64,000 bases of DNA. It comes from an uncultured Clostridia bacterium. Its GTDB lineage: Bacteria; Bacillota; Clostridia; Peptostreptococcales; Anaerovoracaceae. Within the stretch, counting starts at the first letter, position 1, and each line of letters begins with the position of its first letter. The notes under the pieces are model-generated. The model made no database searches, was not told the DNA's origin, and saw nothing but the letters and a program-made list of their open reading frames with translations. The position numbers were made by a program, and so were the translations under genes. The stretch is from NCBI GenBank assembly GCA_963558965.1, contig CAUWIT010000008.1, positions 11,423-75,422 on the forward strand, read 5' to 3'. Positions 6,881-40,718 of the stretch are shown here, piece after piece.

Positions 6881-6997
6881 AATTACCACCTTTTTCTATT
6901 GTCTTTCATTATAGATTATATACTAATTAGGTAAAATAGTATATAATTAACAGGTAAAATATAACTAAAATAAACCGATAAAATGGAGGACATAATT

Positions 6998-8797
6998 ATG
7001 AATTTTCAAGACTTCGGATTTATAAGGATCGGTTGTGGCACACCTGATGTAAAAAAGGCTAACACAACTGATAACGCAGAAGCTATCATCAAAATTATCA
7101 ACGATGCTAAAATAGAAAACATCAGTCTTTTACTTTTGCCAGAGCTAGTTTTAACTGGTGCAAATCTTGGCAACTTGTTTAATCAAAAGCAACTGCTAAA
7201 AGCGCAGCAAGATGCTCTTTTTGAAATAATACAGGCAACTGAAAATACTGGCATAACTTTAGTTTTAGGCGGATACGAAAAAACTAAGAACAACTTGTAT
7301 AAGACAAATTATATTATTCAAAATGGTGAACTTTTACATACACATGTAGACTCTAATCTTTCAAAAGATGAAATGTCAACTTTTACTTATACTGATGAAA
7401 ATGAGGAAGCAATTTACTTAGATGAGCAAAACGATATTACTATTGATTTCAATGGAAATGCAGATATTCATCTTATCACTTCTTCTGAAGAGGTAACTGT
7501 AGGTCAATTTGATTACATGAAAAACTATGTAAAAATGCTAAGTGGTGCAAATCACAATATCACAGTGCTATCTGCCCTAAACGGCATGGCAATTATAGCT
7601 GAGAATGGCAACATTTTAGTTGCAAAAAGCCCATTCTTAAAGGGAGATCTTATCTGTGCAGACTGCGATGTAGAAATAGTACACAACGAGAAATTGTTGA
7701 CAGCAAAACCACAGTCATTCTACATGGAAGAATTCCCTATAGAACCGTTAAAAATGTGGAATGGCCAGCCTCTAAAAAGAGAAGTGCGCCCAAATCCTTT
7801 TGAGCCTGCTACTGCTGAGGAATTATATAATAACTGCTATGAAATTTTTGAAATCCAGTCAGATGCTCTTGCTAAAAGATTGGCTCACACTCACAGCAAA
7901 GTAAGCGTAGTTGGTATATCAGGTGGTCTTGATAGTACTCTTGCTCTTTTGGTAACAGCTTATGCTCATAAAAAACTTGGCAAACCTGCTAAGGATATTA
8001 TCGCTGTAACTATGCCTGGATTTGGTACAACTGGCAGAACTTACGAAAATGCTCTTGCTATGATGAAAAGCGTAGGTGCAACTGTTAAAGAAATCTCTAT
8101 AGTTGATGCTGTAACTCAGCACTTTAAGGATATTGAGCACGATATGGATGTTCACGATGTAACTTACGAAAATTCTCAGGCGAGAGAAAGAACTCAAATC
8201 CTTATGGATATTGCAAATCAAGAAGGTGGCATAGTTATAGGTACTGGTGACTTAAGTGAAGAGGCACTAGGTTGGTGCACATTTAACGGTGACCATATCT
8301 CTATGTTTGGGGTAAATGCTGGAGTTCCTAAAACTGTTATCAAGTTTATCGTTAGATGGTTTATAGATGTAAAGCTAAAAGAAGATCTTGATTTTTCTAA
8401 AGACAATGTGCTTTTAGCAAGAACTTTGGAAGATATTTTAGATACACCTATTTCACCTGAGCTACTTCCTCCAGATGAAGATGGCAATATTGCACAGAAA
8501 ACAGAAGACAATGTTGGCCCTTATGAGCTACATGACTTCTTTATATTCCACACTGTTAGATATGGTGTTTCACCTGCAAAGCTAGCATTTTTAGCTAAGG
8601 AAGCATTTGGTGATAAGTATGATGAAGATTTTATTGCAAAATGGCTTCAAGTATTTTATAGAAGATTTTTCGCTCAGCAGTTTAAGAGAAGCTGTTCACC
8701 AGATAGTCCAAAGATTGGAACTATCGATTTGTCACCTGCTCACTGGAATATGCCTAGCGATGCATTTGCAAATGAATGGCTAAATGGTCTTAAATAG
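6998..8797 (+). CDS. nadE: NAD+ synthetase of the two-domain (glutamine-dependent-type) architecture, with degenerate glutaminase domain
   Basis: Synthetase motifs SGGLDST, ENSQARER, GTGDLSE, PISPELLP, FKRSCSPD intact; N-terminal CN-hydrolase domain shortened; start at 6998 after SD GGAGG. Confidence 0.9.
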   Translation: MNFQDFGFIRIGCGTPDVKKANTTDNAEAIIKIINDAKIENISLLLLPELVLTGANLGNLFNQKQLLKAQQDALFEIIQATENTGITLVLGGYEKTKNNLYKTNYIIQNGELLHTHVDSNLSKDEMSTFTYTDENEEAIYLDEQNDITIDFNGNADIHLITSSEEVTVGQFDYMKNYVKMLSGANHNITVLSALNGMAIIAENGNILVAKSPFLKGDLICADCDVEIVHNEKLLTAKPQSFYMEEFPIEPLKMWNGQPLKREVRPNPFEPATAEELYNNCYEIFEIQSDALAKRLAHTHSKVSVVGISGGLDSTLALLVTAYAHKKLGKPAKDIIAVTMPGFGTTGRTYENALAMMKSVGATVKEISIVDAVTQHFKDIEHDMDVHDVTYENSQARERTQILMDIANQEGGIVIGTGDLSEEALGWCTFNGDHISMFGVNAGVPKTVIKFIVRWFIDVKLKEDLDFSKDNVLLARTLEDILDTPISPELLPPDEDGNIAQKTEDNVGPYELHDFFIFHTVRYGVSPAKLAFLAKEAFGDKYDEDFIAKWLQVFYRRFFAQQFKRSCSPDSPKIGTIDLSPAHWNMPSDAFANEWLNGLK

Positions 8798-8941
8798 TTG
8801 AAAATAAGCACTTAGTTATAGCAATGTGTTCTGCCTATAGATATTTTCAATAAGAAACGTCTCATTAGTGGTAGAATTTATAGATACAAGGTGGTATAAT
8901 CAACCTATCTTAAGTTTATAAGTAATAAGGAGGTTTTACGT

Positions 8942-9619
8942 ATGAAACTAGTATACACAGGAAAAACAAAAAACGTATATGATATGGAAGATGGTAACTA
9001 TCTTTTAGATTTTAAAGATGATGTTACTGGCGAAGATGGTGTTTTTGACCCAGGTGCTAACACAGTTGGTCTTTCAATTGAAGGAATGGGAAAAATTTGC
9101 GTTAAGCTAACTGATTTCTTCTTCTCAAAGATTGCTGAAGCTGGTGTTCCAACTCACTATGTAAGCGCTGATGTTGAAAAAGCTCAGATGGTTGTTAAAC
9201 CTGCTGAACTATTTGGTAAAGGTCTAGAAGTTATCTGCAGACTAAAATCAGTAGGAAGCTTCTACAGAAGATATGGTGATTACTGCGAAGAAGGTCAGCC
9301 ACTTGACTATTTCGTAGAAGTAACACTAAAAGACAATGATAGAGAAGATCCACCTATCTCAAAAGATGCTTTAGATATGTTAGGAATCCTATCAGCTGAA
9401 GAATACGAAGATATCAAAGTTCTTACAAAGAAACTAACTAAAATTGTTGAAGAAGAACTAAAGAAAAAAGGCCTAGACCTATATGACATTAAATTAGAAT
9501 TTGGTAGAATCGACGGTAAAGTTGCTCTAGTTGACGAAATTTCAGGCGGCAACATGAGAGTTTACAAAGATGGTGAATACGTAGAACCATTAAAATTACC
9601 TGGTCTACTATTTGACTAA
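8942..9619 (+). CDS. purC: Phosphoribosylaminoimidazole-succinocarboxamide synthase
   Basis: YTGKTKNVY, FKDDVTG, DIKLEFG, DEISGGNMRV; strong SD AGGAGG. Confidence 0.9.
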   Translation: MKLVYTGKTKNVYDMEDGNYLLDFKDDVTGEDGVFDPGANTVGLSIEGMGKICVKLTDFFFSKIAEAGVPTHYVSADVEKAQMVVKPAELFGKGLEVICRLKSVGSFYRRYGDYCEEGQPLDYFVEVTLKDNDREDPPISKDALDMLGILSAEEYEDIKVLTKKLTKIVEEELKKKGLDLYDIKLEFGRIDGKVALVDEISGGNMRVYKDGEYVEPLKLPGLLFD

Positions 9620-9652
9620 TTAGATATCACTTATAGATAACTAATTTATAAA

Positions 9653-9719
9653 TATCGAAAACTTCGATACCCAAACAACGGTTTTGACTATTGCAAATAA
9701 TAATAAATAGTATTATACT
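9653..9719 (+). promoter_or_regulatory. LysR-type box plus sigma-A promoter for a short downstream transcript
   Basis: Palindrome TATCGAAAACTTCGATA (9653-9669) centred about -65; -35 TTGCAA 9691-9696, 17 bp, -10 TATACT 9714-9719. Confidence 0.7.
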
Positions 9720-9725
9720 TTAAAC

Positions 9726-9863
9726 ATGAAAATGCCTGTTATATACACCCCTAGATAATCTCCCTATTTTGTTTCGAGGTATATAGTTAAAGGCATTTTC
9801 TTTTCCGACTTAAATCAATTATTATATAAAAAAAAGATGGACTTCGCGGTTCATCTTTTTTTC
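9726..9863 (+). ncRNA. Candidate small RNA A (hairpin with CUCCCU loop)
   Basis: Promoter upstream, long hairpin 9729-9799, intrinsic terminator 9828-9863, no ORF longer than 10 codons; inference only. Confidence 0.45.
9828..9863. terminator. Bidirectional intrinsic terminator
   Basis: AAAAAAAAGATGGAC-TTCGCG-GTTCATCTTTTTTT. Confidence 0.75.
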
Positions 9864-9892
9864 GTTTACATCATGCTACACTGTACACACTG

Positions 9893-10837
9893 CTACCACA
9901 ATTTATCAACATCCTTGTTAGCCCAGTAATCTCTAAAGTGTTTTTCAAGTGTTGATACGTATTCACTGGCAATCTTGCTCATATTTTTACCTTTTTTAAT
10001 TATCCATCCAAATTCGCAATAGACTTTAGGATCAAGTGGAATATAACGTAACCCTTCATACCATTCACTATTAAAATCACGCTCTTTGTAGACATCTAAC
10101 ATAAATGCATCAGTTTTTCTAATAACTTCTTTTAAATGTTCAACGCTGCCTACTGAAATGTTTTCTTTTACTCTCTCATTTTTATTTACAATACGCTCGT
10201 AAATTACATCTGCCTCTTCAGCATAATACCCAGCAAAAGGAAATTGATTTAAGTATTCCAGCTTAATAGTTTTACCTTCCATTTTGTAAAATGGATTGCT
10301 TTCGCCGATTACTACACACATAACTTTTTTATCTATAAAATGGTATTCAACCCCTTGTCTTTTCATAGTTCTTAAATGTATCTCTCGATTGTCCACTGGA
10401 AAACGTACAAGACCTACTTCGGAAACACCGGAAGCTACATTTTCAATAGCTTCACTTACTGAACATTCCTGAATTTTAAATCTACAATGTTTCCCGTTGT
10501 ACTTGTTATATAACTCGATAAAAATATCTTTGCCTATAACACTGTAATTGTTTGATACAGATAAAACCATATCCCCTTCAATTTCTTTGTGTATGCTTTT
10601 TTTCATATTGTAAACTTGTTCACATATAGATCTACCCTGATTGTAAACTTCGATACCCATAGGAGTTAATGATACACCTTTGCTATCTCGCTCAATTAGT
10701 TGGCAACCTAATTCTTCCTCAAAATTTTTAATTGACGCACTTAAAGTTGATTGTGCTACATGTAAGTTAATGGCAGCTTTACTTATTGAGCCACATTCCT
10801 TAATTTTAATTAACTGCTCTAACTGTTCAAATTTCAT
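9893..10837 (-). CDS. LysR-family transcriptional regulator
   Basis: N-terminal HTH GSISKAAINLHVAQSTLSASIKNFEEELG; 314 aa. Confidence 0.92.
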   Translation of the reverse strand: MKFEQLEQLIKIKECGSISKAAINLHVAQSTLSASIKNFEEELGCQLIERDSKGVSLTPMGIEVYNQGRSICEQVYNMKKSIHKEIEGDMVLSVSNNYSVIGKDIFIELYNKYNGKHCRFKIQECSVSEAIENVASGVSEVGLVRFPVDNREIHLRTMKRQGVEYHFIDKKVMCVVIGESNPFYKMEGKTIKLEYLNQFPFAGYYAEEADVIYERIVNKNERVKENISVGSVEHLKEVIRKTDAFMLDVYKERDFNSEWYEGLRYIPLDPKVYCEFGWIIKKGKNMSKIASEYVSTLEKHFRDYWANKDVDKLW

Positions 10838-10880
10838 AATTTTGCCCTCATAATCATCAAATCTTTACCTTTACATCAAG

Positions 10881-10970
10881 ATTATACTACAAAAAAATAG
10901 CAATATCAATAATTCCGATAGTTACATATCAAAAACTTCTATAGCCACTTTTTACTTTTTGTTCTATAAT
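10881..10970. promoter_or_regulatory. Divergent LysR promoter region with two LTTR boxes
   Basis: Minus strand TTGATA(10904-10909)-17-TATAAT(10881-10886) for lysR; boxes TATCAATAATTCCGATA 10904-10920 and TATCAAAAACTTCTATA 10927-10943; plus-strand -10 TATAAT 10965-10970. Confidence 0.7.
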
Positions 10971-10976
10971 AAAGAC

Positions 10977-11123
10977 ATAGATAGTTTTGTTCTACTAAAT
11001 AATCTTGAAGGAGGCTCGAATTCCTCTTTGTGTAGCTTCCTTCTCAATAAGCTCTTTAATATAATAAATATTTTACATAAGCATTTTAAAAGACAGTGGT
11101 TTTACGGGCCACTGTCTTTTAAA
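10977..11123 (+). ncRNA. Candidate small RNA B divergent from lysR (hairpin with UUCCUC loop)
   Basis: Hairpin 11005-11047, strong terminator stem 11085-11123, no ATG-started ORF; inference only. Confidence 0.5.
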
Positions 11124-11177
11124 TTTATCTAAGATTTTTATAGTTGGTTTTAACGTTTTAACAACATAATCCCTAAA

Positions 11178-11221
11178 AAAAGAGATTCGAAACAGCTTTA
11201 ACAGCCAGTCGAATCTCTTTT
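11178..11221 (-). terminator. Terminator downstream of uvrA
   Basis: AAAAGAGATTCG...CGAATCTCTTTT inverted repeat with U tract on the minus strand. Confidence 0.65.
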
Positions 11222-11240
11222 CTAATTTATATATTTACTT

Positions 11241-14081
11241 CTATTTATTTAAAATTTTCTTTAGATACTTGCCTGTATACGATTGATCGTTAGCAGCGAT
11301 ATCCTCTGGTGTACCCTCAGCAATAACCATTCCACCTCGGAAACCTCCCTCAGGCCCTAAGTCTATAATATGGTCTGCTCGTTTTATCACATCTAGGTTG
11401 TGCTCGATTACAACTACTGTGTTTCCAGCATCCACAAGTTTATCTAAAACCTGGTTCAATCTGTCAACATCTGCAAAGTGCAATCCTGTAGTAGGCTCAT
11501 CGAGAATGTATATGTTTTTGCCTGTAGATCTCTTTGAAAGCTCAGAGGCTAGTTTTATACGCTGTGCTTCCCCACCGGATAACTGCGTTGAAGGCTGACC
11601 TAGCTTAATATATCCAAGGCCCACTTCTTCCAAAGTATCAAGCTGTCTTTTAATACTTGGAATATGCTCGAAAAACTTAACAGCTTCCGATATAGTCATA
11701 TCGAGAACTTCAAAGATATTTTTATCTTTGTATTTTACTTCCAAAGTTTCTCTATTGTATCTCTTGCCCTTGCACACTTCACAAGGTACATAGACATCAG
11801 GTAAAAAATGCATTTCTATTTTTATAATACCATCGCCGTTACAAGCTTCACATCTACCACCTTTTACATTGAAACTAAATCTACCCTTGTTGTATCCACG
11901 CATTTTAGCTTCTGGCACTTGTGCAAATAAATCTCTTATATGAGTAAACACTCCCGTGTATGTAGCTGGATTTGATCTAGGAGTTCTGCCTATAGGCTCT
12001 TGGTTTACATCAACTACTTTTTCTAGATTTTCGTAACCCTTTATCTCCTTGTGCTTACCAGGTTTGTGTTTAGCGTTGTTTAACTTGTTAGCCAAAGACT
12101 TGTACAAAATATCATTGATTAAACTTGATTTCCCTGAACCAGAAACACCAGTTACACAAGTCAATTTACCTAGTGGTATTTTTACATCAATGTCTTTTAG
12201 GTTGTTTTCGGCTGCTCCTATAATCTCAATAAATTTGCCGTTTCCCTCTCTTCGAGTTTCAGGCACTTGGATTTTTCTCTTGCCTGATAAATACTGACCA
12301 GTTATTGAATTAGGATTGTTTTTTATATCCTCAACTGTTCCCTGCGCAGTTACTTCTCCGCCGTGGACTCCTGCAGCTGGGCCAATATCTATAATATGAT
12401 CTGCTGCATACATAGTATCTTCATCATGTTCAACAACAATTAGAGTATTGCCTATATCAGTTAAGTTCCTTAAGGCCTCCAACAATTTATCGTTGTCTCT
12501 TTGATGAAGTCCTATGCTTGGTTCATCTAAAATATATAAAACTCCCACTAAACTTGAGCCTATTTGAGTTGCAAGTCTAATTCGCTGTGACTCTCCCCCT
12601 GACAAAGTTGCAGAAGCTCTTGAAAGTGTTAAATAATCAAGACCAACATCTATTAAAAATTGAAGTCTAGATTTGATTTCCTTTATAATCTGTTTAGCAA
12701 TGGCTTCTTCTTTTGGTGTAAATTGCAAGCTTTCTATAAATTCCTTCGCTTCTAGTATAGACATATCAGATAGCTCCGCAATATTTTTGCCACCTACTGT
12801 AACAGCAAGAACTTCCGGTTTCAACCTTTTGCCTTGACATGCTGGACATGGAGCTTCCATCATATATTTTTTAATACGCTCCTTCATAAATTCCGAATCA
12901 GTCTGCATAAATCTTCTTTCAAGATTTGGAATAACCCCTTCAAAAGAATCTTCCCTGTGACTAAGTGCACCTGTAGTCCTGCTTACATAGTCGTATTTTA
13001 CTTTTTTTGTACCAGTACCGTATAAAAGTTCTTTTTGAAGTTTCTTTGGCAAATCACACCATGGAGTGTAAACATCTACATCGTATTGGGCCGCTAGAGC
13101 ATCTATCATCTGTCGATAAAATCTACCATCTTCCATAGAAGCAAAAGCATTTCCAAAAACACCATCGTATATGCTTTTTGTTTCATCCTCGATTAACAAT
13201 TCTGGATCAATACGCTGTAAAAACCCTAAACCGTTACATTCGGGACAAGCCCCAAAAGGACTGTTGAATGAAAACATACGAGGTTCCATTTCTTCTATGC
13301 TTATACCGTGTTCAGGGCAAGCCAAAGAAGTGCTAAAAGTTTTTTCATAAGACTCTCCGTCCTTTGAAATTAAAACTTGTATAAGTCCATCGCCGTGAGC
13401 GATTGCAAGTTCGCAAGCCTCGCTTAAACGACCTTCAACCCCTTCTCTTACAACAATTCTATCCACTACAATTTCAATAGTATGCTTAAAAGTTTTTTCA
13501 AGTTTAATCTCATCTTCTTCTAGCATATAGATTTCTCCATCCACTCTAACCCTTGAAAAACCTTCTTTTCTTATTCTCTCTAGGATTTTTTCATGAGTAC
13601 CTTTTCGCTGTCTAACAACGGGAGCAAGCATTGTAAGTCTAGTTTTTTCACCTAGCTCCATAAGAGTATCCACAATCTGGTCAACCGATTGAGAAGAAAT
13701 CTCCCTGCCGCAAATAGGACAGTGGGGCACGCCTATACGAGCATACATAAGTCTTAAATAGTCGTGGATTTCAGTAACTGTACCTACAGTAGATCTTGGA
13801 TTTTTACTAGTAGTCTTTTGGTCTATAGAAATAGCCGGTGAAAGACCTTCGATGTATTCCACATTTGGTTTTTCCATCTGTCCTAAAAACTGTCTAGCAT
13901 AAGCTGACAAACTTTCTACATATCGTCTCTGTCCCTCTGCATAAATCGTATCAAAAGCCAAAGAGCTTTTGCCAGAACCAGAAAGCCCTGTTAAAACTAC
14001 AAATTTATCTCGAGGAATAACCACATCTATATTTTTTAAATTATTTTCGTTTGCACCTTTTATAATTATGTCTTTTTGCAT
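11241..14081 (-). CDS. uvrA: Excinuclease ABC subunit A
   Basis: Two ABC ATPase sites ([21 protein letters not shown] twice) and Zn fingers; start at 14081 after SD GAGG. Confidence 0.97.
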
Positions 14082-14111
14082 TAGTTTCCTCACATTAGAT
14101 TTTATTGAAAA

Positions 14112-20553: not shown

Positions 20554-21093
20554 ATGAGTAAAAATGTTTTAATTTTATCAGGAAGCCCAAGGAAAAATGG
20601 CAACTCCGATTTGTTGTGTGATGAATTTATGCGTGGCGCCATAGAGAGCGGCAATAAAGTTGAAAAAATAAGGGTGGCCGACAAAAAAATTGCTCCGTGT
20701 TCCGGTTGCTATTACTGCAACTCTCACAATGGCCAATGTGCCCATAAGGATGATATGGCCGATATTTTGCAGAAGATTATCGATGCTGATGTGATCGTCC
20801 TTAGCTCCCCTGTTTATTTTTATTCAATTAGCGCTCAGCTAAAGGCTGTAATCGACCGCACAGTTGCCAGATGGCTTGAGGTGAAAAACAAGGAATTTTA
20901 TTATATTGTGACAATGGCCGATGAAGATCTTGCATCTGCTGATACGACTCTCGCTTGTTTCCGCGGCTATGCCGATTGCGTTGAATGCGCTGTTGAAAAA
21001 GGCGTTGTAATCGGGAATGGCGTTTACGATATTGGTGAAGTAAGAGAGACTGCTGTTCCAATGCAGGCATACGAAATGGGAAAAAGCGTTTGA
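20554..21093 (+). CDS. Iron-sulfur flavoprotein / NADPH-dependent FMN reductase family
   Basis: GSPRKNGNS, CSGCYYC...C, SSPVYF. Confidence 0.87.
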   Translation: MSKNVLILSGSPRKNGNSDLLCDEFMRGAIESGNKVEKIRVADKKIAPCSGCYYCNSHNGQCAHKDDMADILQKIIDADVIVLSSPVYFYSISAQLKAVIDRTVARWLEVKNKEFYYIVTMADEDLASADTTLACFRGYADCVECAVEKGVVIGNGVYDIGEVRETAVPMQAYEMGKSV

Positions 21094-21318
21094 TTTGATT
21101 GAATTCGATTCAATTAAGTACAAGGTGCAGACGACCGAAGGTTGCGACCTGCGTACCTCGGTGGAATCAATGGTAAATGTAAAAGGACTCCAAGTCAAAA
21201 ATGACATGGAGTCCTTTGGTTTGCTAACTTTAATTTTTGATATTACGGCTAGCAAAGAACAATTTAAAAAGTTCCATATTAGTTAATACTAGACCATAAA
21301 AGATTAATTACTTTTAAC

Positions 21319-21446
21319 AATCATTAGTCCGGCTGCCTTCACCGTCTTTATTCGTTGGCATTTTTCAGCTGCCTTCACTGTCTTTATTCGTTGGCATTTA
21401 TACAGCTGCCTTCACTGTCTTTATTCGTTGGCACTTACTAATGATT
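21319..21446 (-). repeat. Three 29-bp direct repeats (period 36/37 bp) enclosed by a 10-bp inverted repeat; candidate structured ncRNA
   Basis: Copies at 21332-21360, 21368-21396 and 21405-21433; AATCATTAGT 21319-21328 / ACTAATGATT 21437-21446. Confidence 0.9.
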
Positions 21447-22064: not shown

Positions 22065-22149
22065 ATCTATTCTCCTGTCTGTCGCTTTTTTAGTTTGTTA
22101 TATTTTGTATTTTCTTTTGTTGCTAAAACTTTACAGATAATTTATTACA

Positions 22150-23375
22150 GTTTTAGAATAACGAAAAACTTGAAGGTACTAAAACCAATCTACAATAGTA
22201 GAAATTGCTTATATTAGTTTTACAGTAACGGAAAACTTAAGGGTACTAAAACTTATTTGCCATTTTGTTTCTCCTTCTATTCGTTTTACAGTAACGGAAA
22301 ACTTAAGGGTACTAAAACCTATGACTATAGGAGAAATAATAAAAAACTAGTTTTACAGTAACGGAAAACTTAAGGGTACTAAAACAAATCGATTCCATGT
22401 TTATCAGATGAAATAGTTTTACAGTAACGGAAAACTTAAGGGTACTAAAACCCATCAACTTCTACCTGGTTAAATCTAAACGTTTTACAGTAACGGAAAA
22501 CTTAAGGGTACTAAAACACTTGTTCTAACAATTCTTCAAGCGATATCGTTTTACAGTAACGGAAAACTTAAGGGTACTAAAACTATACCTCCCACTATAC
22601 AATAACATAAAATGTTTTACAGTAACGGAAAACTTAAGGGTACTAAAACTATAATGGAGTTGAACTTAAGGAAAGGAGGGTTTTACAGTAACGGAAAACT
22701 TAAGGGTACTAAAACAATTTTATGCTGTGCGCTCCGTCCCAACTAGTTTTACAGTAACGGAAAACTTAAGGGTACTAAAACGAATAGCAATAAAAGAACT
22801 ATATAATAACAGTTTTACAGTAACGGAAAACTTAAGGGTACTAAAACTGAAATTATAAAAGGTACTGAAGCACTAGAGTTTTACAGTAACGGAAAACTTA
22901 AGGGTACTAAAACTCACAAACATTTGATATTACATTCAATGGTGTTTTACAGTAACGGAAAACTTAAGGGTACTAAAACACTTGTATTAGTGTATCGTCA
23001 ATACTTTTAGTTTTACAGTAACGGAAAACTTAAGGGTACTAAAACTGTGAGAAATGTCTACAGCTGCTTTGACAAGTTTTACAGTAACGGAAAACTTAAG
23101 GGTACTAAAACATGTTTGCCTCTGTAAGTGCTACACTTGCAGTTTTACAGTAACGGAAAACTTAAGGGTACTAAAACCAAATAGAAAGAGAAAGAATCGA
23201 CTATATTGTTTTACAGTAACGGAAAACTTAAGGGTACTAAAACGGGCTATTATCAATTAATTTGTTTATATTTGTTTTACAGTAACGGAAAACTTAAGGG
23301 TACTAAAACATGATGACTTTTGACGATCTTAAGACTTTAGTTTTACAGTAACGGAAAACTTAAGGGTACTAAAAC
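22150..23375 (-). CRISPR. Type II-A CRISPR array, 19 repeats and 18 spacers (30-31 bp)
   Basis: 36-bp repeat GTTTTAGTACCCTTAAGTTTTCCGTTACTGTAAAAC (minus strand); degenerate terminal repeat at 22150-22185 marks the trailer. Confidence 0.98.
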
Positions 23376-23403
23376 CTCAAATCGTCATTTGAAGTTTTAG
23401 TTA
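23376..23403 (-). promoter_or_regulatory. CRISPR leader with leader-anchoring sequence ATTTGAG
   Basis: ATTTGAG abuts the first repeat, matching the known S. thermophilus CRISPR1-type anchoring motif; the leader is only 28 bp. Confidence 0.75.
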
Positions 23404-38579: not shown

Positions 38580-40308
38580 GTCTGTCACCCCACTTATTAC
38601 ACAATTTTTCTTGCTCCGTATAAATATGGAAATACATACCTTTGTTTTCCATCAGCTCCTCATGGACACCTTGCTCTGCAATGCCACCGTCCTTAAGCAC
38701 ATAAATATTGTCCGAATCAACCACATTTGCCATTCTGTGAGAAATAAACAATATAGTTTTTTCCTTTGCAAGTTCTTTAATAATCTCCATAATCAGGCTC
38801 TCGCTCTCCACATCTATGTTTGAAGTTGCCTCGTCGAAAATATACATAGGTGCATCTTTAAGAATGGCTCTTGCTAGTGCCATTCTCTGTTTTTGTCCTC
38901 CAGATAAGTTGCTGCCCTGCTCTATTAATTTTGTATCCAAACCTCTTTGCTGCTGTAAAAATTCCCAAAGATTTACTTTTTTCAATATGTTTATAAACTC
39001 TTCGTCTGTCCCATTTTCTTTAGCCATTTTCAAGTTTTCTCTTACTGTTCCACCGAAAATATAGCTGTTGTATCTAACTGTTACAATAGAGTTCATAAGT
39101 TGTTTTTCATCTATGTTTTCTATTGGGTTGCCGTTGATTTTTACAGTGCCGTCAAAGTTGCTGTAATTACCTGTAATTAGAGAGGCGATTGTACTTTTAC
39201 CGCTACCTGAAACTCCAACTACGGAAACAAATTGGCCTGATTTTATTTCAAGTGAAACATCATTTAAAACCTTTGTGTTTTCATCATATCCAAAAGTTAG
39301 ATTTTCTACTTCAATATTTATATCTTCATTTTCCAATTTTTCTGTGCCACCTTGACCTGACTCTGTCTTTAAAAAGGCGAAAATCTTGTCGCTAGCCGCC
39401 ATGCCATTCATGGCTATATGGAAAAATGATCCCAACAGTCTCAACGGTATGAAAAATTCGGCTGCTAACAGTGCTATAGTTATTGCTTCCCAAAGCTGTA
39501 GGTTGCCACTTTGAAACTGGAAGATTGCCATTACCATACCAATAGCTGCTCCTCCATATGCCACTAAATCCATAACGCTAATTGAGTTAAGCTGCATAAT
39601 TAAAACTCTCATAGTTATCTTTCTAAATTTCTCAGCTTCCTCTTCCATCTGTTTAGCTTTAAATTCGTCGCTTTTATATATTTTTAAAGTTGTAAGTCCC
39701 TGTAAATTTTCAAGGAAGCTATCTCCTAGTTCTGTGTAAACTCCCCAGTAATTATTTAAAAGTCTTTTGGCGATTTTCTGGACTAATACGATTGAAATAG
39801 GTATTAGCGGTACGCAAATCAGCAATACCAATGCCACTTTAAAACTTATAAATGACAAAAATGCAAACAAAGTTACTGGTGCTATAACGCTGTAAAACAG
39901 CTGAGGCAAGTATTTGCCATAATATATTTCAAGCTGCTCGATGCCTTCTACTGTTAGCTGGATCACTTCTGATGTAGAAGTTTTTTCTCTGTATCCAGCG
40001 CCTAGGCTTAAAACTTTGTCGTAAATTGATTTTCTCAATTTTTTCTTTACATCATAACCAGCTTTGTAATTTGCTTTTGAATTTTGTTTATCGCAAAAAA
40101 ACTTTACCAATATCATTGCGGCTGTTACGCCTACGCACATCCAAACATCTTTGGCTACTAGATTGTCGTCCCAGCTTTTATTTATTGTTACTGCTAAAAT
40201 AACAACGGCAACGATTTGACACACCAGTGCTAACCATTGCCACAAAACGCTGTACGCAATATACTTTTCCGAGCCTTTCATCTCGGTTATAAGTTCTTTT
40301 TTTATCAT
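38569..40308 (-). CDS. ABC exporter permease/ATPase (CydD-like half of a heterodimer)
   Basis: [38 protein letters not shown]. Confidence 0.88.
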   Translation of the reverse strand: MIKKELITEMKGSEKYIAYSVLWQWLALVCQIVAVVILAVTINKSWDDNLVAKDVWMCVGVTAAMILVKFFCDKQNSKANYKAGYDVKKKLRKSIYDKVLSLGAGYREKTSTSEVIQLTVEGIEQLEIYYGKYLPQLFYSVIAPVTLFAFLSFISFKVALVLLICVPLIPISIVLVQKIAKRLLNNYWGVYTELGDSFLENLQGLTTLKIYKSDEFKAKQMEEEAEKFRKITMRVLIMQLNSISVMDLVAYGGAAIGMVMAIFQFQSGNLQLWEAITIALLAAEFFIPLRLLGSFFHIAMNGMAASDKIFAFLKTESGQGGTEKLENEDINIEVENLTFGYDENTKVLNDVSLEIKSGQFVSVVGVSGSGKSTIASLITGNYSNFDGTVKINGNPIENIDEKQLMNSIVTVRYNSYIFGGTVRENLKMAKENGTDEEFINILKKVNLWEFLQQQRGLDTKLIEQGSNLSGGQKQRMALARAILKDAPMYIFDEATSNIDVESESLIMEIIKELAKEKTILFISHRMANVVDSDNIYVLKDGGIAEQGVHEELMENKGMYFHIYTEQEKLCNKWGDRHEA

Positions 40309-40346
40309 CACTACCACCCTTCCTTTTTGACTCTATATGACTCTAT

Positions 40347-40718
40347 TTAACTTATAGTCTCTACTCTCGTGAAAAAATAGATGTATTTAAATATCACCAA
40401 CAGCAAAATACATACTCTGCCGTAAATATTTGACATCATTAAAAACGCAGCTAATAACATTATTGAAACTGGTATCAATATGCAAAATTTAGTTTTAAGT
40501 GTCATGCTTCTGTCAGATACAAATGACTCCAAATGTTTTTTGTACAATTTCGTGCTTACAAACCAACTGTGAAATTTATCCGAGCCTTTTGCAAATGCAA
40601 ATGAGGCTACAAGCAGGAATGGCGTTGTTGGCAATACAGGCAGTACTACACCTATACACCCTATCCCGCAGCATAAAAATCCTATAATTATCCAAATCGT
40701 TTTAATTGTTTTTTTCAT
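40347..40718 (-). CDS. YbaN/DUF454 family inner-membrane protein
   Basis: GVVLPVLPTTPFLL...AKGS motif. Confidence 0.85.
   Translation of the reverse strand: MKKTIKTIWIIIGFLCCGIGCIGVVLPVLPTTPFLLVASFAFAKGSDKFHSWFVSTKLYKKHLESFVSDRSMTLKTKFCILIPVSIMLLAAFLMMSNIYGRVCILLLVIFKYIYFFTRVETIS

Follow-up and report, generated by a model that had tools for sequence, protein, structure and literature searches.

Why should a gene for a transcriptional regulator of LysR type (LTTR) lie between two intergenic gaps that each look like a transcription unit and hold no conserved open reading frame (ORF)? The locus belongs to an uncultured Clostridia bacterium and sits in a 64,000-nucleotide stretch of its DNA (contig CAUWIT010000008.1 of assembly GCA_963558965.1, positions 11,423 to 75,422; hereafter the window), where lysR separates unit 1, the gap next to a purC-like gene, from unit 2, the gap next to uvrA. 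LTTRs, the largest family of bacterial regulators, bind T-N11-A boxes near -65, and in Escherichia coli one of them, GcvA, activates the divergent small RNA (sRNA) GcvB. A first reading, made from the letters of the window without database searches (the sequence-only reading), had proposed that this LTTR acts in a GcvA/GcvB-like manner through two sibling sRNAs that share one operator. Our analysis gives a related but different answer: in the chicken-gut clostridial genus Gallibacter, the LysR gene appears to be located between two conserved, structured, ORF-less sRNA genes and to form with them a dedicated regulator and small-RNA module, a reading to which we assign a probability of roughly two in three.

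The case was built in silico from the features of the locus, its conserved geometry, the covariation of both RNAs, the co-occurrence of one of them with the regulator, and the fold of the protein. Relatives were taken from species-representative genomes and a few metagenome contigs, and RNA models were searched against 401 genomes of the family, next to the genome assembly of the window itself (G000; 1.63 Mb, 29 contigs). A protein search in metagenomes gave 16 further LysR homologues (53-90% identity), and 8 contigs were retrieved; the lineages used here are called L039, L061, L062 and L064. Besides G000, a LysR orthologue is carried by four other species of the genus (G001, G002, G003 and G005; 53-91% identity), and in the named relative, Gallibacter intestinalis DSM 108706 (G001), it is 72% identical. 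Three congeners have no orthologue, the nearest protein there being a paralogue of at most 36% identity.

The predicted product of unit 2, an RNA of about 150 nt (sRNA2), is encoded divergently from lysR wherever the upstream DNA could be read, in 11 lineages (5 species genomes and 6 metagenome contigs). A covariance model of this RNA, R1, matched 5 of the 401 family genomes, which are exactly the species with a LysR orthologue above 50% identity, and found nothing in the three congeners that have none. Unit 2 folds far more stably than shuffled sequences, with z of about -5.3. Fourteen sRNA2 copies were drawn from the 11 lineages, whose LysRs are 53-91% identical, and in their alignments, whose fitting to the covariance model biases them towards the structure, pairing extends to 95.5% of cells versus 39-56% when the partner column is slid. 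Compensatory changes affect 20 of the 27 pairs (7/10 in hairpin P1 and 13/13 in the terminator), a result equalled by none of 500 shuffles. The P1 stem varies from GAAGGAGGCU/AGCUUCCUUC to GAGGGGAAUU/AAUUCCCCUC and on to quite different stems, and it is missing in G002 and replaced in L064. Outside the helices, by contrast, three stretches are invariant or nearly so: the 5' AUAGUUUUGUUC, the pyrimidine-rich loop UUCCUCUU and, in the 3' part, CUCUUUAAU...AAAUAUUUUACAUAA. Whole operator-plus-sRNA2 units have also been repeated in tandem, with three copies in G003 (G003:C28, about 39840-40550) and two in L064 (1950-2290), every copy having boxes of its own; in L064 the 5' AUAGUUUUGUUC module is gone from the second copy, which still has the 3' module.

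These patterns bear on the explanation that the units, either or both, lack an independent function and are remnants in decay or elements acting in cis, such as a leader, an attenuator or a truncated 5' end left by an earlier divergent target, for instance a gene for a YkvI-like transporter. The paralogous LysRs of 36% identity do stand divergent from a gene for a YkvI-like membrane protein, sRNA2 contains a Shine-Dalgarno (SD)-like GAAGGAGG followed by AUU at start-codon distance, and 15 nt of it are identical to the start of the G003 ykvI-like gene. Decay, however, would hardly leave invariant blocks and compensatory changes across lineages whose LysRs are just 53% identical, or amplify whole operator-plus-RNA units in tandem; the ykvI-like 5' untranslated regions (UTRs) of G004, G007 and G001 show no significant similarity, Rfam yielded neither a riboswitch nor a leader, and in four of the five species there is no co-oriented downstream gene to regulate. 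We consider this explanation highly improbable. A cis-leader was rejected on the same geometry: in G000, G001, G005 and G002 sRNA2 faces a convergent downstream gene, and in G003 the bcp-like gene that lies after the third sRNA2 copy has a TGnTATAAT promoter of its own. An origin of sRNA2 from a ykvI-like 5' region was rejected as well, with a single 15-mer match in G003 and nothing significant at the other three paralogue loci. The match itself (G003:C2, about 11146-11160) falls in the NKYFT codons of the ykvI-like gene divergent from the 36% paralogous LysR and coincides, in the same sense, with the 15-nt invariant core AATAAATATTTTACA of the sRNA2 3' module; it may have arisen by chance, by mimicry or from a shared origin.

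On the other flank of lysR, unit 1 is predicted to give a long hairpin of about 85 nt (sRNA1), followed by a bidirectional terminator with an A-run ahead of its stem and a T-run behind. Here too the fold is far better than that of shuffles (z about -5.2 to -5.4), and the apical region combines an invariant AAUAAUCUCCCUAUU(U)UGUUUC with a C-rich CACCCCU. Its model, R2, matched G000, G001 and G003 only among the 401 genomes, and also L061, L062 and L039; over these 6 sequences there are 7 compensatory pairs, 96.6% of cells are paired and none of 500 shuffles does as well. Overall similarity between sRNA1 and sRNA2 is absent, the two sharing just a short UA(G/U)UUUUGUU motif, so that they would be co-regulated RNAs and not the siblings that had been supposed; that word fits only the tandem sRNA2 copies of G003 and L064. 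Pairing of sRNA1 with sRNA2, as in a sponge, was tried and proved no better than with shuffles in 5 lineages. Both units have in common a predicted promoter of their own, an intrinsic terminator and the lack of a conserved ORF, and both RNAs hold invariant blocks outside covarying helices. A search of positions 9400-11400 against the Rfam 15 families at E up to 10 returned terminator-like noise only (20-23 bits versus gathering thresholds of 44-63), and the GcvB and OxyS models gave no match at E up to 10. Judged by their sequences, these are two new RNA families, confined to one clostridial genus.

The sequence-only reading had taken both units to be structured, terminator-ended and without a normal protein, which agrees with what we found, and this leaves the explanation that they encode very small proteins, namely a leaderless 10-codon ORF in unit 1 and an AUU- or TTG-started peptide in unit 2. 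An ATG in unit 1 (9726-9728) coincides with the predicted transcription start, and in unit 2 a GGAGG lies 5-6 nt ahead of the conserved AUU. Against this, frames, lengths and stops differ among close relatives while the nucleotides past the stops are invariant, indels shift the frames, and the G001 unit 1 starts elsewhere. Read by eye, the unit 1 peptides are MKMPVIYTPR, MKMPVYTPLDNLPILFRGI and MPEIYTPI, each followed by a stop, and by this comparison the leaderless ORF was rejected as not conserved; in sRNA2 no conserved ORF was found with seven start-codon types on both strands of the 14 copies. Coding by either unit thus has, in our judgement, next to no chance of being the explanation.

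Control of the two RNAs by the LTTR is suggested by the boxes in front of them (Table 1). On re-reading the sequence, the three boxes first proposed (9653, 10904 and 10927) are where they had been placed, and TATCGAAAACTTCGATA and TATCAAAAACTTCTATA are indeed identical at 15 of 17 positions. From predicted starts near 9726 and 10977 it follows that the 9653 and 10904 boxes are both centred at -65, in line with the earlier estimate of about 65 bp, and the 10927 box at -42. A proximal box in unit 1, CAACGGTTTTGACTATT, had been overlooked; with it, both plus-strand promoters have a common 17-6-17 layout, in which a 17-bp box and a 6-bp spacer are followed by a 17-mer box whose last 2 nt overlap the -35. 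The distal dyad reads TATC-N9-GATA (17 bp) and the proximal sRNA2 box is less symmetric, TATC-N9-CTATA. A single operator shared by both units, as first proposed, therefore holds as to type, the same kind of operator being present at both, but not as to the boxes equated, since the counterpart of the 9653 box is the distal 10904 box and not the 10927 one. The overlap of the 10904 box with the lysR -35 was also borne out: TTGATA (10909-10904) reads on the opposite strand as TATCAA, the distal half-site, and the same overlap occurs in L061. At the sequence level, then, the locus has a predicted divergent target promoter whose operator overlaps the regulator's own promoter, and an LTTR-type operator, consisting of a T-N11-A dyad near -65 and a putative activation site near -35, whose spacing is kept in 13 copies.

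This geometry is shared widely. Thirteen of the 14 sRNA2 copies, all but the degenerate second copy of L064 (L064b), line up in both boxes, in the spacers between the boxes (6 bp) and within the promoter (17 nt), and in how far the invariant 5' end lies from the -10. The sRNA2 -35 hexamers are poor across copies (e.g. TAGCCA, TATCAC), as expected of an activator-dependent promoter. Upstream of sRNA1, an ATC-N9-GAT core lies 61 nt from the -10 in G003, G001 and L061 and, less strictly matched, in L062, and the proximal box is clearer, as AATCGTATTTTACTATG, at the same position in G001 and L062. The sequence-only reading had itself proposed, beforehand, that it be given up if boxes and hairpins were not conserved at orthologous loci, and the synteny and covariation search was positive for boxes, promoters and hairpins.

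A degenerate box consensus has 9 matches with at most 2 mismatches in the window versus 1.0 expected (0 of 100 shuffles), an enrichment that is circular because the consensus was built from the tested boxes themselves. An independent test used a matrix for the 40-nt composite of two boxes and the 6 bp between them, trained solely on operators of other genomes: over the 1.63-Mb genome (3.26 million positions) it gave a single outstanding match, 10904-10943, with 31.9 bits, the next unrelated one reaching 12.5, and no second strong site that would point to further regulon members. With independent training, lone distal-type 17-mers have counterparts elsewhere in the genome; the other high-scoring single boxes, as far as inspected, all lie within coding regions.

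The boxes might nevertheless belong to a different transcription factor or promoter architecture, with LysR merely a syntenic neighbour. They are known from sequence, single 17-mers of similar score occur elsewhere in the genome, and an invariant dyad upstream of the purC-like gene, which lacks the C/G positions, hints at another binder of AT-rich dyads. This is countered by the perfect co-occurrence of sRNA2 with LysR over 401 genomes and 6 contigs, by a dyad placed on the lysR -35 exactly as in self-repressed LTTRs, by the -65/-42 geometry and the T-N11-A dyad, which are LTTR hallmarks, and by a similar box, AATCAATATATCCGATA, that the 36% paralogous LysR of G003 has before its own divergent gene. 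We regard a different factor as very unlikely.

The 314-aa protein is an LTTR by sequence and, as modelled, by fold. HTH_1 (PF00126), the winged helix-turn-helix of LysR type, was matched at residues 4-61 with E = 3.3e-18, and the Pfam LysR_substrate domain was not detected in this protein. Its AlphaFold model (predicted local distance difference test, pLDDT, 82.7) aligns over about 310 columns with the full-length crystal structures of OxyR, CbnR, BenM, CcmR and CysB (E = 6e-19 to 1e-15), full-length OxyR being the best match; this accords with a two-lobed C-terminal effector domain attached through a long linker helix. NCBIfam matches were at family level only and all under their cut-offs, the best being a selenium-associated LysR with 77 bits versus 250. 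Orthology with GcvA (41.7 bits versus a cut-off of 288) and with OxyR (43.9 versus 329) was ruled out, the kinship with GcvA being no closer than family level. A redox sensor was also considered and rejected, as no cysteine pair is conserved: the sole invariant cysteine among 15 homologues is C174, so that an OxyR-like disulfide switch is not indicated.

From these elements we infer the following scheme, which includes binding of the boxes by LysR, activation as the direction of control, transcription of both units and base pairing in trans. The LTTR, presumably a tetramer, would sit on a two-part operator, with the distal TATC-N9-GATA dyad at about -65 as recognition site and the proximal TATC-N9-CTATA box, six bp further on and abutting the -35, as activation site. 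Because the distal half-site doubles as the lysR -35, binding should repress lysR. When bound to its effector, the LTTR would contact the proximal box and recruit RNA polymerase to the weak sRNA2 -35, and the second operator, of like geometry, would drive sRNA1 on the other flank of lysR. The products would be two non-coding RNAs with intrinsic terminators, whose invariant stretches should, by prediction, be single-stranded: AUAGUUUUGUUC, the UUCCUCUU loop and CUCUUUAAU...AAAUAUUUUACAUAA in sRNA2, and AAUCUCCCUAUUUUGUUUC in sRNA1. Most likely these would serve as seeds that pair with mRNAs, partly at SD regions, in a manner free of Hfq and CsrA.

Several observations weigh against this scheme. 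sRNA1 is absent from the more distant species that carry LysR, and the pair of RNAs therefore does not go back to the ancestor of the whole clade. The sRNA1 operator scores 10.3 bits with the composite matrix, which is within genome noise, and the 9653 box taken singly ranks about 10th genome-wide under independent training, behind several intragenic matches; what speaks for this operator is hence position and conservation and not motif strength. Given that score, a degenerate proximal box and a fairly good -35 (TTGCAA), sRNA1 could be largely constitutive, and the boxes could, as discussed above, serve another factor. Finally, no conserved mRNA target was found, the best candidate sites, at hbd and at ridA-tyrS, finding little or no counterpart in close relatives.

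The target analysis was genome-wide in one genome, G000, and included a duplex scan of the translation-initiation regions at 1487 predicted starts. For the sRNA2 3' module the top sites were the ridA-tyrS junction (z = -5.5), with a split 8+8-nt match, and hbd, encoding 3-hydroxybutyryl-CoA dehydrogenase (z = -4.7), whose 5'UTR is complementary over 17+7 nt. Both were set aside for lack of conservation: of the hbd site a part survives in G003 and nothing in G001 and G002, the gene itself missing in G005, and complementarity at the ridA-tyrS junction is absent in G003, G002 and G005. Exact 14-mer matches in target sense occurred across the genus at about the same rate as with a reversed-pattern control, and neither the sRNA1 seed nor the sRNA2 loop had a target above background. 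In G. intestinalis, a junction of ridA with a threonine-dehydratase-like gene (G001:C3, about 21071-21100) is perfectly complementary to the 3' module of sRNA2 over about 16 nt, as far as the SD; the ridA sites of G. intestinalis and G000 are not orthologous. Immediately upstream of the candidate pairing site, the hbd 5'UTR, outside the window (contig C2, about 74010-74030), contains an inverted repeat that is conserved, TTAGTTAATTTTTTAACAA, and that fits the clostridial Rex operator consensus TTGTTAA-N4-TTAACAA.

The lack of a conserved target speaks in part for another role of the RNAs, which may be real and LysR-controlled and yet, instead of pairing in trans, titrate a protein that binds RNA, or serve another RNA as sponge or decoy, P1 with its SD-like GAAGGAGG paired to CUUCCUUC then being structural or protein-binding. 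Three separate invariant modules within one 150-nt RNA would suit such a role, and the 15-nt sRNA2 core carried in the same sense by the G003 gene divergent from the paralogous LysR would fit mimicry. The genome, however, has no match to CsrA or Hfq (tblastn), the lone GGA-containing hairpin is the one missing in G002 and replaced in L064, and the 15-mer may be just AT-rich NKYFT codons, being 1 hit in 12 comparisons with a score reached by 1-3 of 1000 shuffles. Titration or decoy action appears to us unlikely, if with an appreciable residual chance, and regulation by base pairing remains the reading that we prefer.

If the LTTR controls both RNAs, its whole direct regulon, besides its own gene, may consist of non-coding RNAs, two unrelated families packaged as portable 17-6-17-operator cassettes and duplicated (three copies in one species, two in another) or lost by lineage. 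We advance this tentatively and think it rather doubtful; were it true, a metabolic or stress signal would be relayed purely post-transcriptionally in a Gram-positive anaerobe that lacks Hfq.

The surroundings of the module hold a few further features. A possible fourth, weaker dyad, TATAGATATTTTCAATA, is identical in G000, G003, G001, L061, L062 and L064 despite diverged flanks; it resembles the LysR box without the C/G of the TATC/GATA half-sites and falls below the matrix thresholds, and its membership of the LysR regulon is uncertain. Past it, in the promoter region of the purC-like gene (8866-8903), come the block GTAGAATTTATA, also conserved, and a -10 of the form TGnTATAAT. The SAICAR-synthetase-like product of that gene is the sole PurC homologue in the genome (tblastn), scores 114.5 against the purC equivalog model (cut-off 189.9), and may represent either a PurC that has diverged or a paralogue acting on another substrate; the gene is syntenic with nadE and lysR in most lineages. 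Further along the window are a tandem array at 21332-21437 (2.9 copies of a 37-nt unit, 94% identity; Tandem Repeats Finder) and, on the minus strand at 22149-23376, a CRISPR array with about 19 copies of a 36-nt repeat, GTTTTAGTACCCTTAAGTTTTCCGTTACTGTAAAAC, which belongs to a type II-A locus and is unrelated to the sRNAs. A relation of the sRNAs to this type II-A repeat or to the trans-activating CRISPR RNA was rejected, as similarity was not convincing and sRNA2 tracks LysR, not cas9.

Table 1. Coordinates in the window of the genes, predicted RNAs, promoters and candidate operator boxes around lysR.
Feature	Position	Strand	Remarks
NAD synthase gene (nadE)	6983-8797	+	
Possible fourth, weaker dyad TATAGATATTTTCAATA	8836-8852	.	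about -64 from purC-like promoter
SAICAR-synthetase-like (purC-like) gene	8942-9619	+	225 aa
Unit 1 (sRNA1) gap	9620-9892		273 bp between purC-like gene and lysR
sRNA1 distal operator box TATCGAAAACTTCGATA, predicted	9653-9669	+	centred about -65 from predicted start 9726
sRNA1 proximal box CAACGGTTTTGACTATT, degenerate	9676-9692	+	6 bp past distal box; final 2 nt within -35
sRNA1 promoter TTGCAA-17 nt-TATACT	9691-9696, 9714-9719	+	promoter scan; kept in G003
sRNA1, predicted long hairpin	9724-9809	+	about 85 nt; ends in U-tract
Bidirectional terminator hairpin	9829-9862	.	serves sRNA1 read-through and convergent lysR; from fold
lysR	9893-10837	-	314-aa LysR-type transcriptional regulator
Unit 2 (sRNA2) gap	10838-11240		403 bp between lysR and uvrA
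lysR promoter TTGATA-17 nt-TATAAT	10909-10904, 10886-10881	-	promoter scan; 11/12 match
sRNA2 distal operator box TATCAATAATTCCGATA, predicted	10904-10920	+	centred about -65 from sRNA2 start; overlaps lysR -35
sRNA2 proximal operator box TATCAAAAACTTCTATA, predicted	10927-10943	+	centred about -42; last 2 nt are first 2 of weak -35
sRNA2 promoter, weak -35 TAGCCA-17 nt-TATAAT	10942-10947, 10965-10970	+	promoter scan
sRNA2, predicted	10977-11128	+	about 150 nt; from fold and alignment of copies
sRNA2 invariant 5' AUAGUUUUGUUC	10981-10992	+	
sRNA2 hairpin P1	11007-11043	+	GAAGGAGG pairs with CUUCCUUC; UUCCUCUU loop exposed
sRNA2 conserved 3' module GCUCUUUAAUAUAAUAAAUAUUUUACAUAAGC	11051-11082	+	
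sRNA2 intrinsic terminator	11085-11123	+	from fold; also called in promoter/terminator scan
uvrA	11241-14093	-	3' end faces unit 2

If confirmed, the locus would extend the design of an LTTR with a divergent sRNA to the Clostridia, offer a handle on Hfq-independent riboregulation in Anaerovoracaceae-like gut bacteria and provide a natural case of amplification of an operator-plus-sRNA cassette. Its reach is narrowed by the single-genus distribution; within that genus it makes a compact, testable example with a clear operator grammar, and Gallibacter intestinalis DSM 108706 is a cultivable chicken-gut anaerobe.

The pairs of LTTR and sRNA named in a 2026 review, OxyR/OxyS, GcvA/GcvB and QrrT/QrrX, are all from Proteobacteria, and the same review names no Gram-positive or clostridial one (PMC13501541). 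The likeness to GcvA/GcvB is that an LTTR gene stands divergent from an ORF-less, terminator-ended sRNA with conserved single-stranded seeds that is under its control (for the role of GcvB, PMC13501541), this control being predicted in the present case. Of the GcvA/GcvB-like character first suggested, then, the divergent, self-overlapping promoter layout stands and the kinship does not: the regulator is no GcvA orthologue, GcvB finds no Rfam match, there is no known GcvR partner and no Hfq by tblastn, the seeds are U- and C-rich where those of GcvB are G/U-rich, and a second, unrelated sRNA would be under the same operator.

With OxyR/OxyS of E. coli and relatives the locus shares a divergent sRNA gene and an operator on the regulator's promoter, an arrangement that combines self-repression with activation of the sRNA (PMC13501541). 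It differs in its non-orthologous regulator, its twofold TATC-N9-GATA, its C174 as the only invariant cysteine and the absence of an OxyS match. The OxyR operator is an ATAG-N7-CTAT tetrad. QrrT of Vibrio cholerae is likewise a regulator of LysR type, known for controlling the transcription of an sRNA, QrrX (PMC13501541). QrrX, however, is a proteobacterial, Hfq-dependent sponge of the Qrr sRNAs, and with no significant pairing between sRNA1 and sRNA2 nothing indicates a sponge in Gallibacter. Among RNAs of Firmicutes, the C-rich sRNAs of RsaE/RoxS type and multicopy siblings such as the CiaR-dependent small RNAs (csRNAs) are also short and Hfq-independent, with C- or pyrimidine-rich unpaired motifs that can pair with the SD, and occur in repeated copies each with a regulator site. 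Their regulators are Rex, ResD, SrrAB or CiaR and not an LTTR, and neither sRNA1 nor sRNA2 has sequence or Rfam kinship with them or a distribution beyond one genus.

Without GcvA or OxyR orthology and without RNAs of the GcvB or OxyS family, the locus is no member of those systems and shares their architecture only. In conclusion, an LTTR with a divergent, operator-sharing sRNA is an already known kind of system, to which this locus, as far as its sequence tells, belongs with two new RNA families, and it is probably a Gram-positive counterpart of the proteobacterial GcvA/GcvB and OxyR/OxyS pairs.

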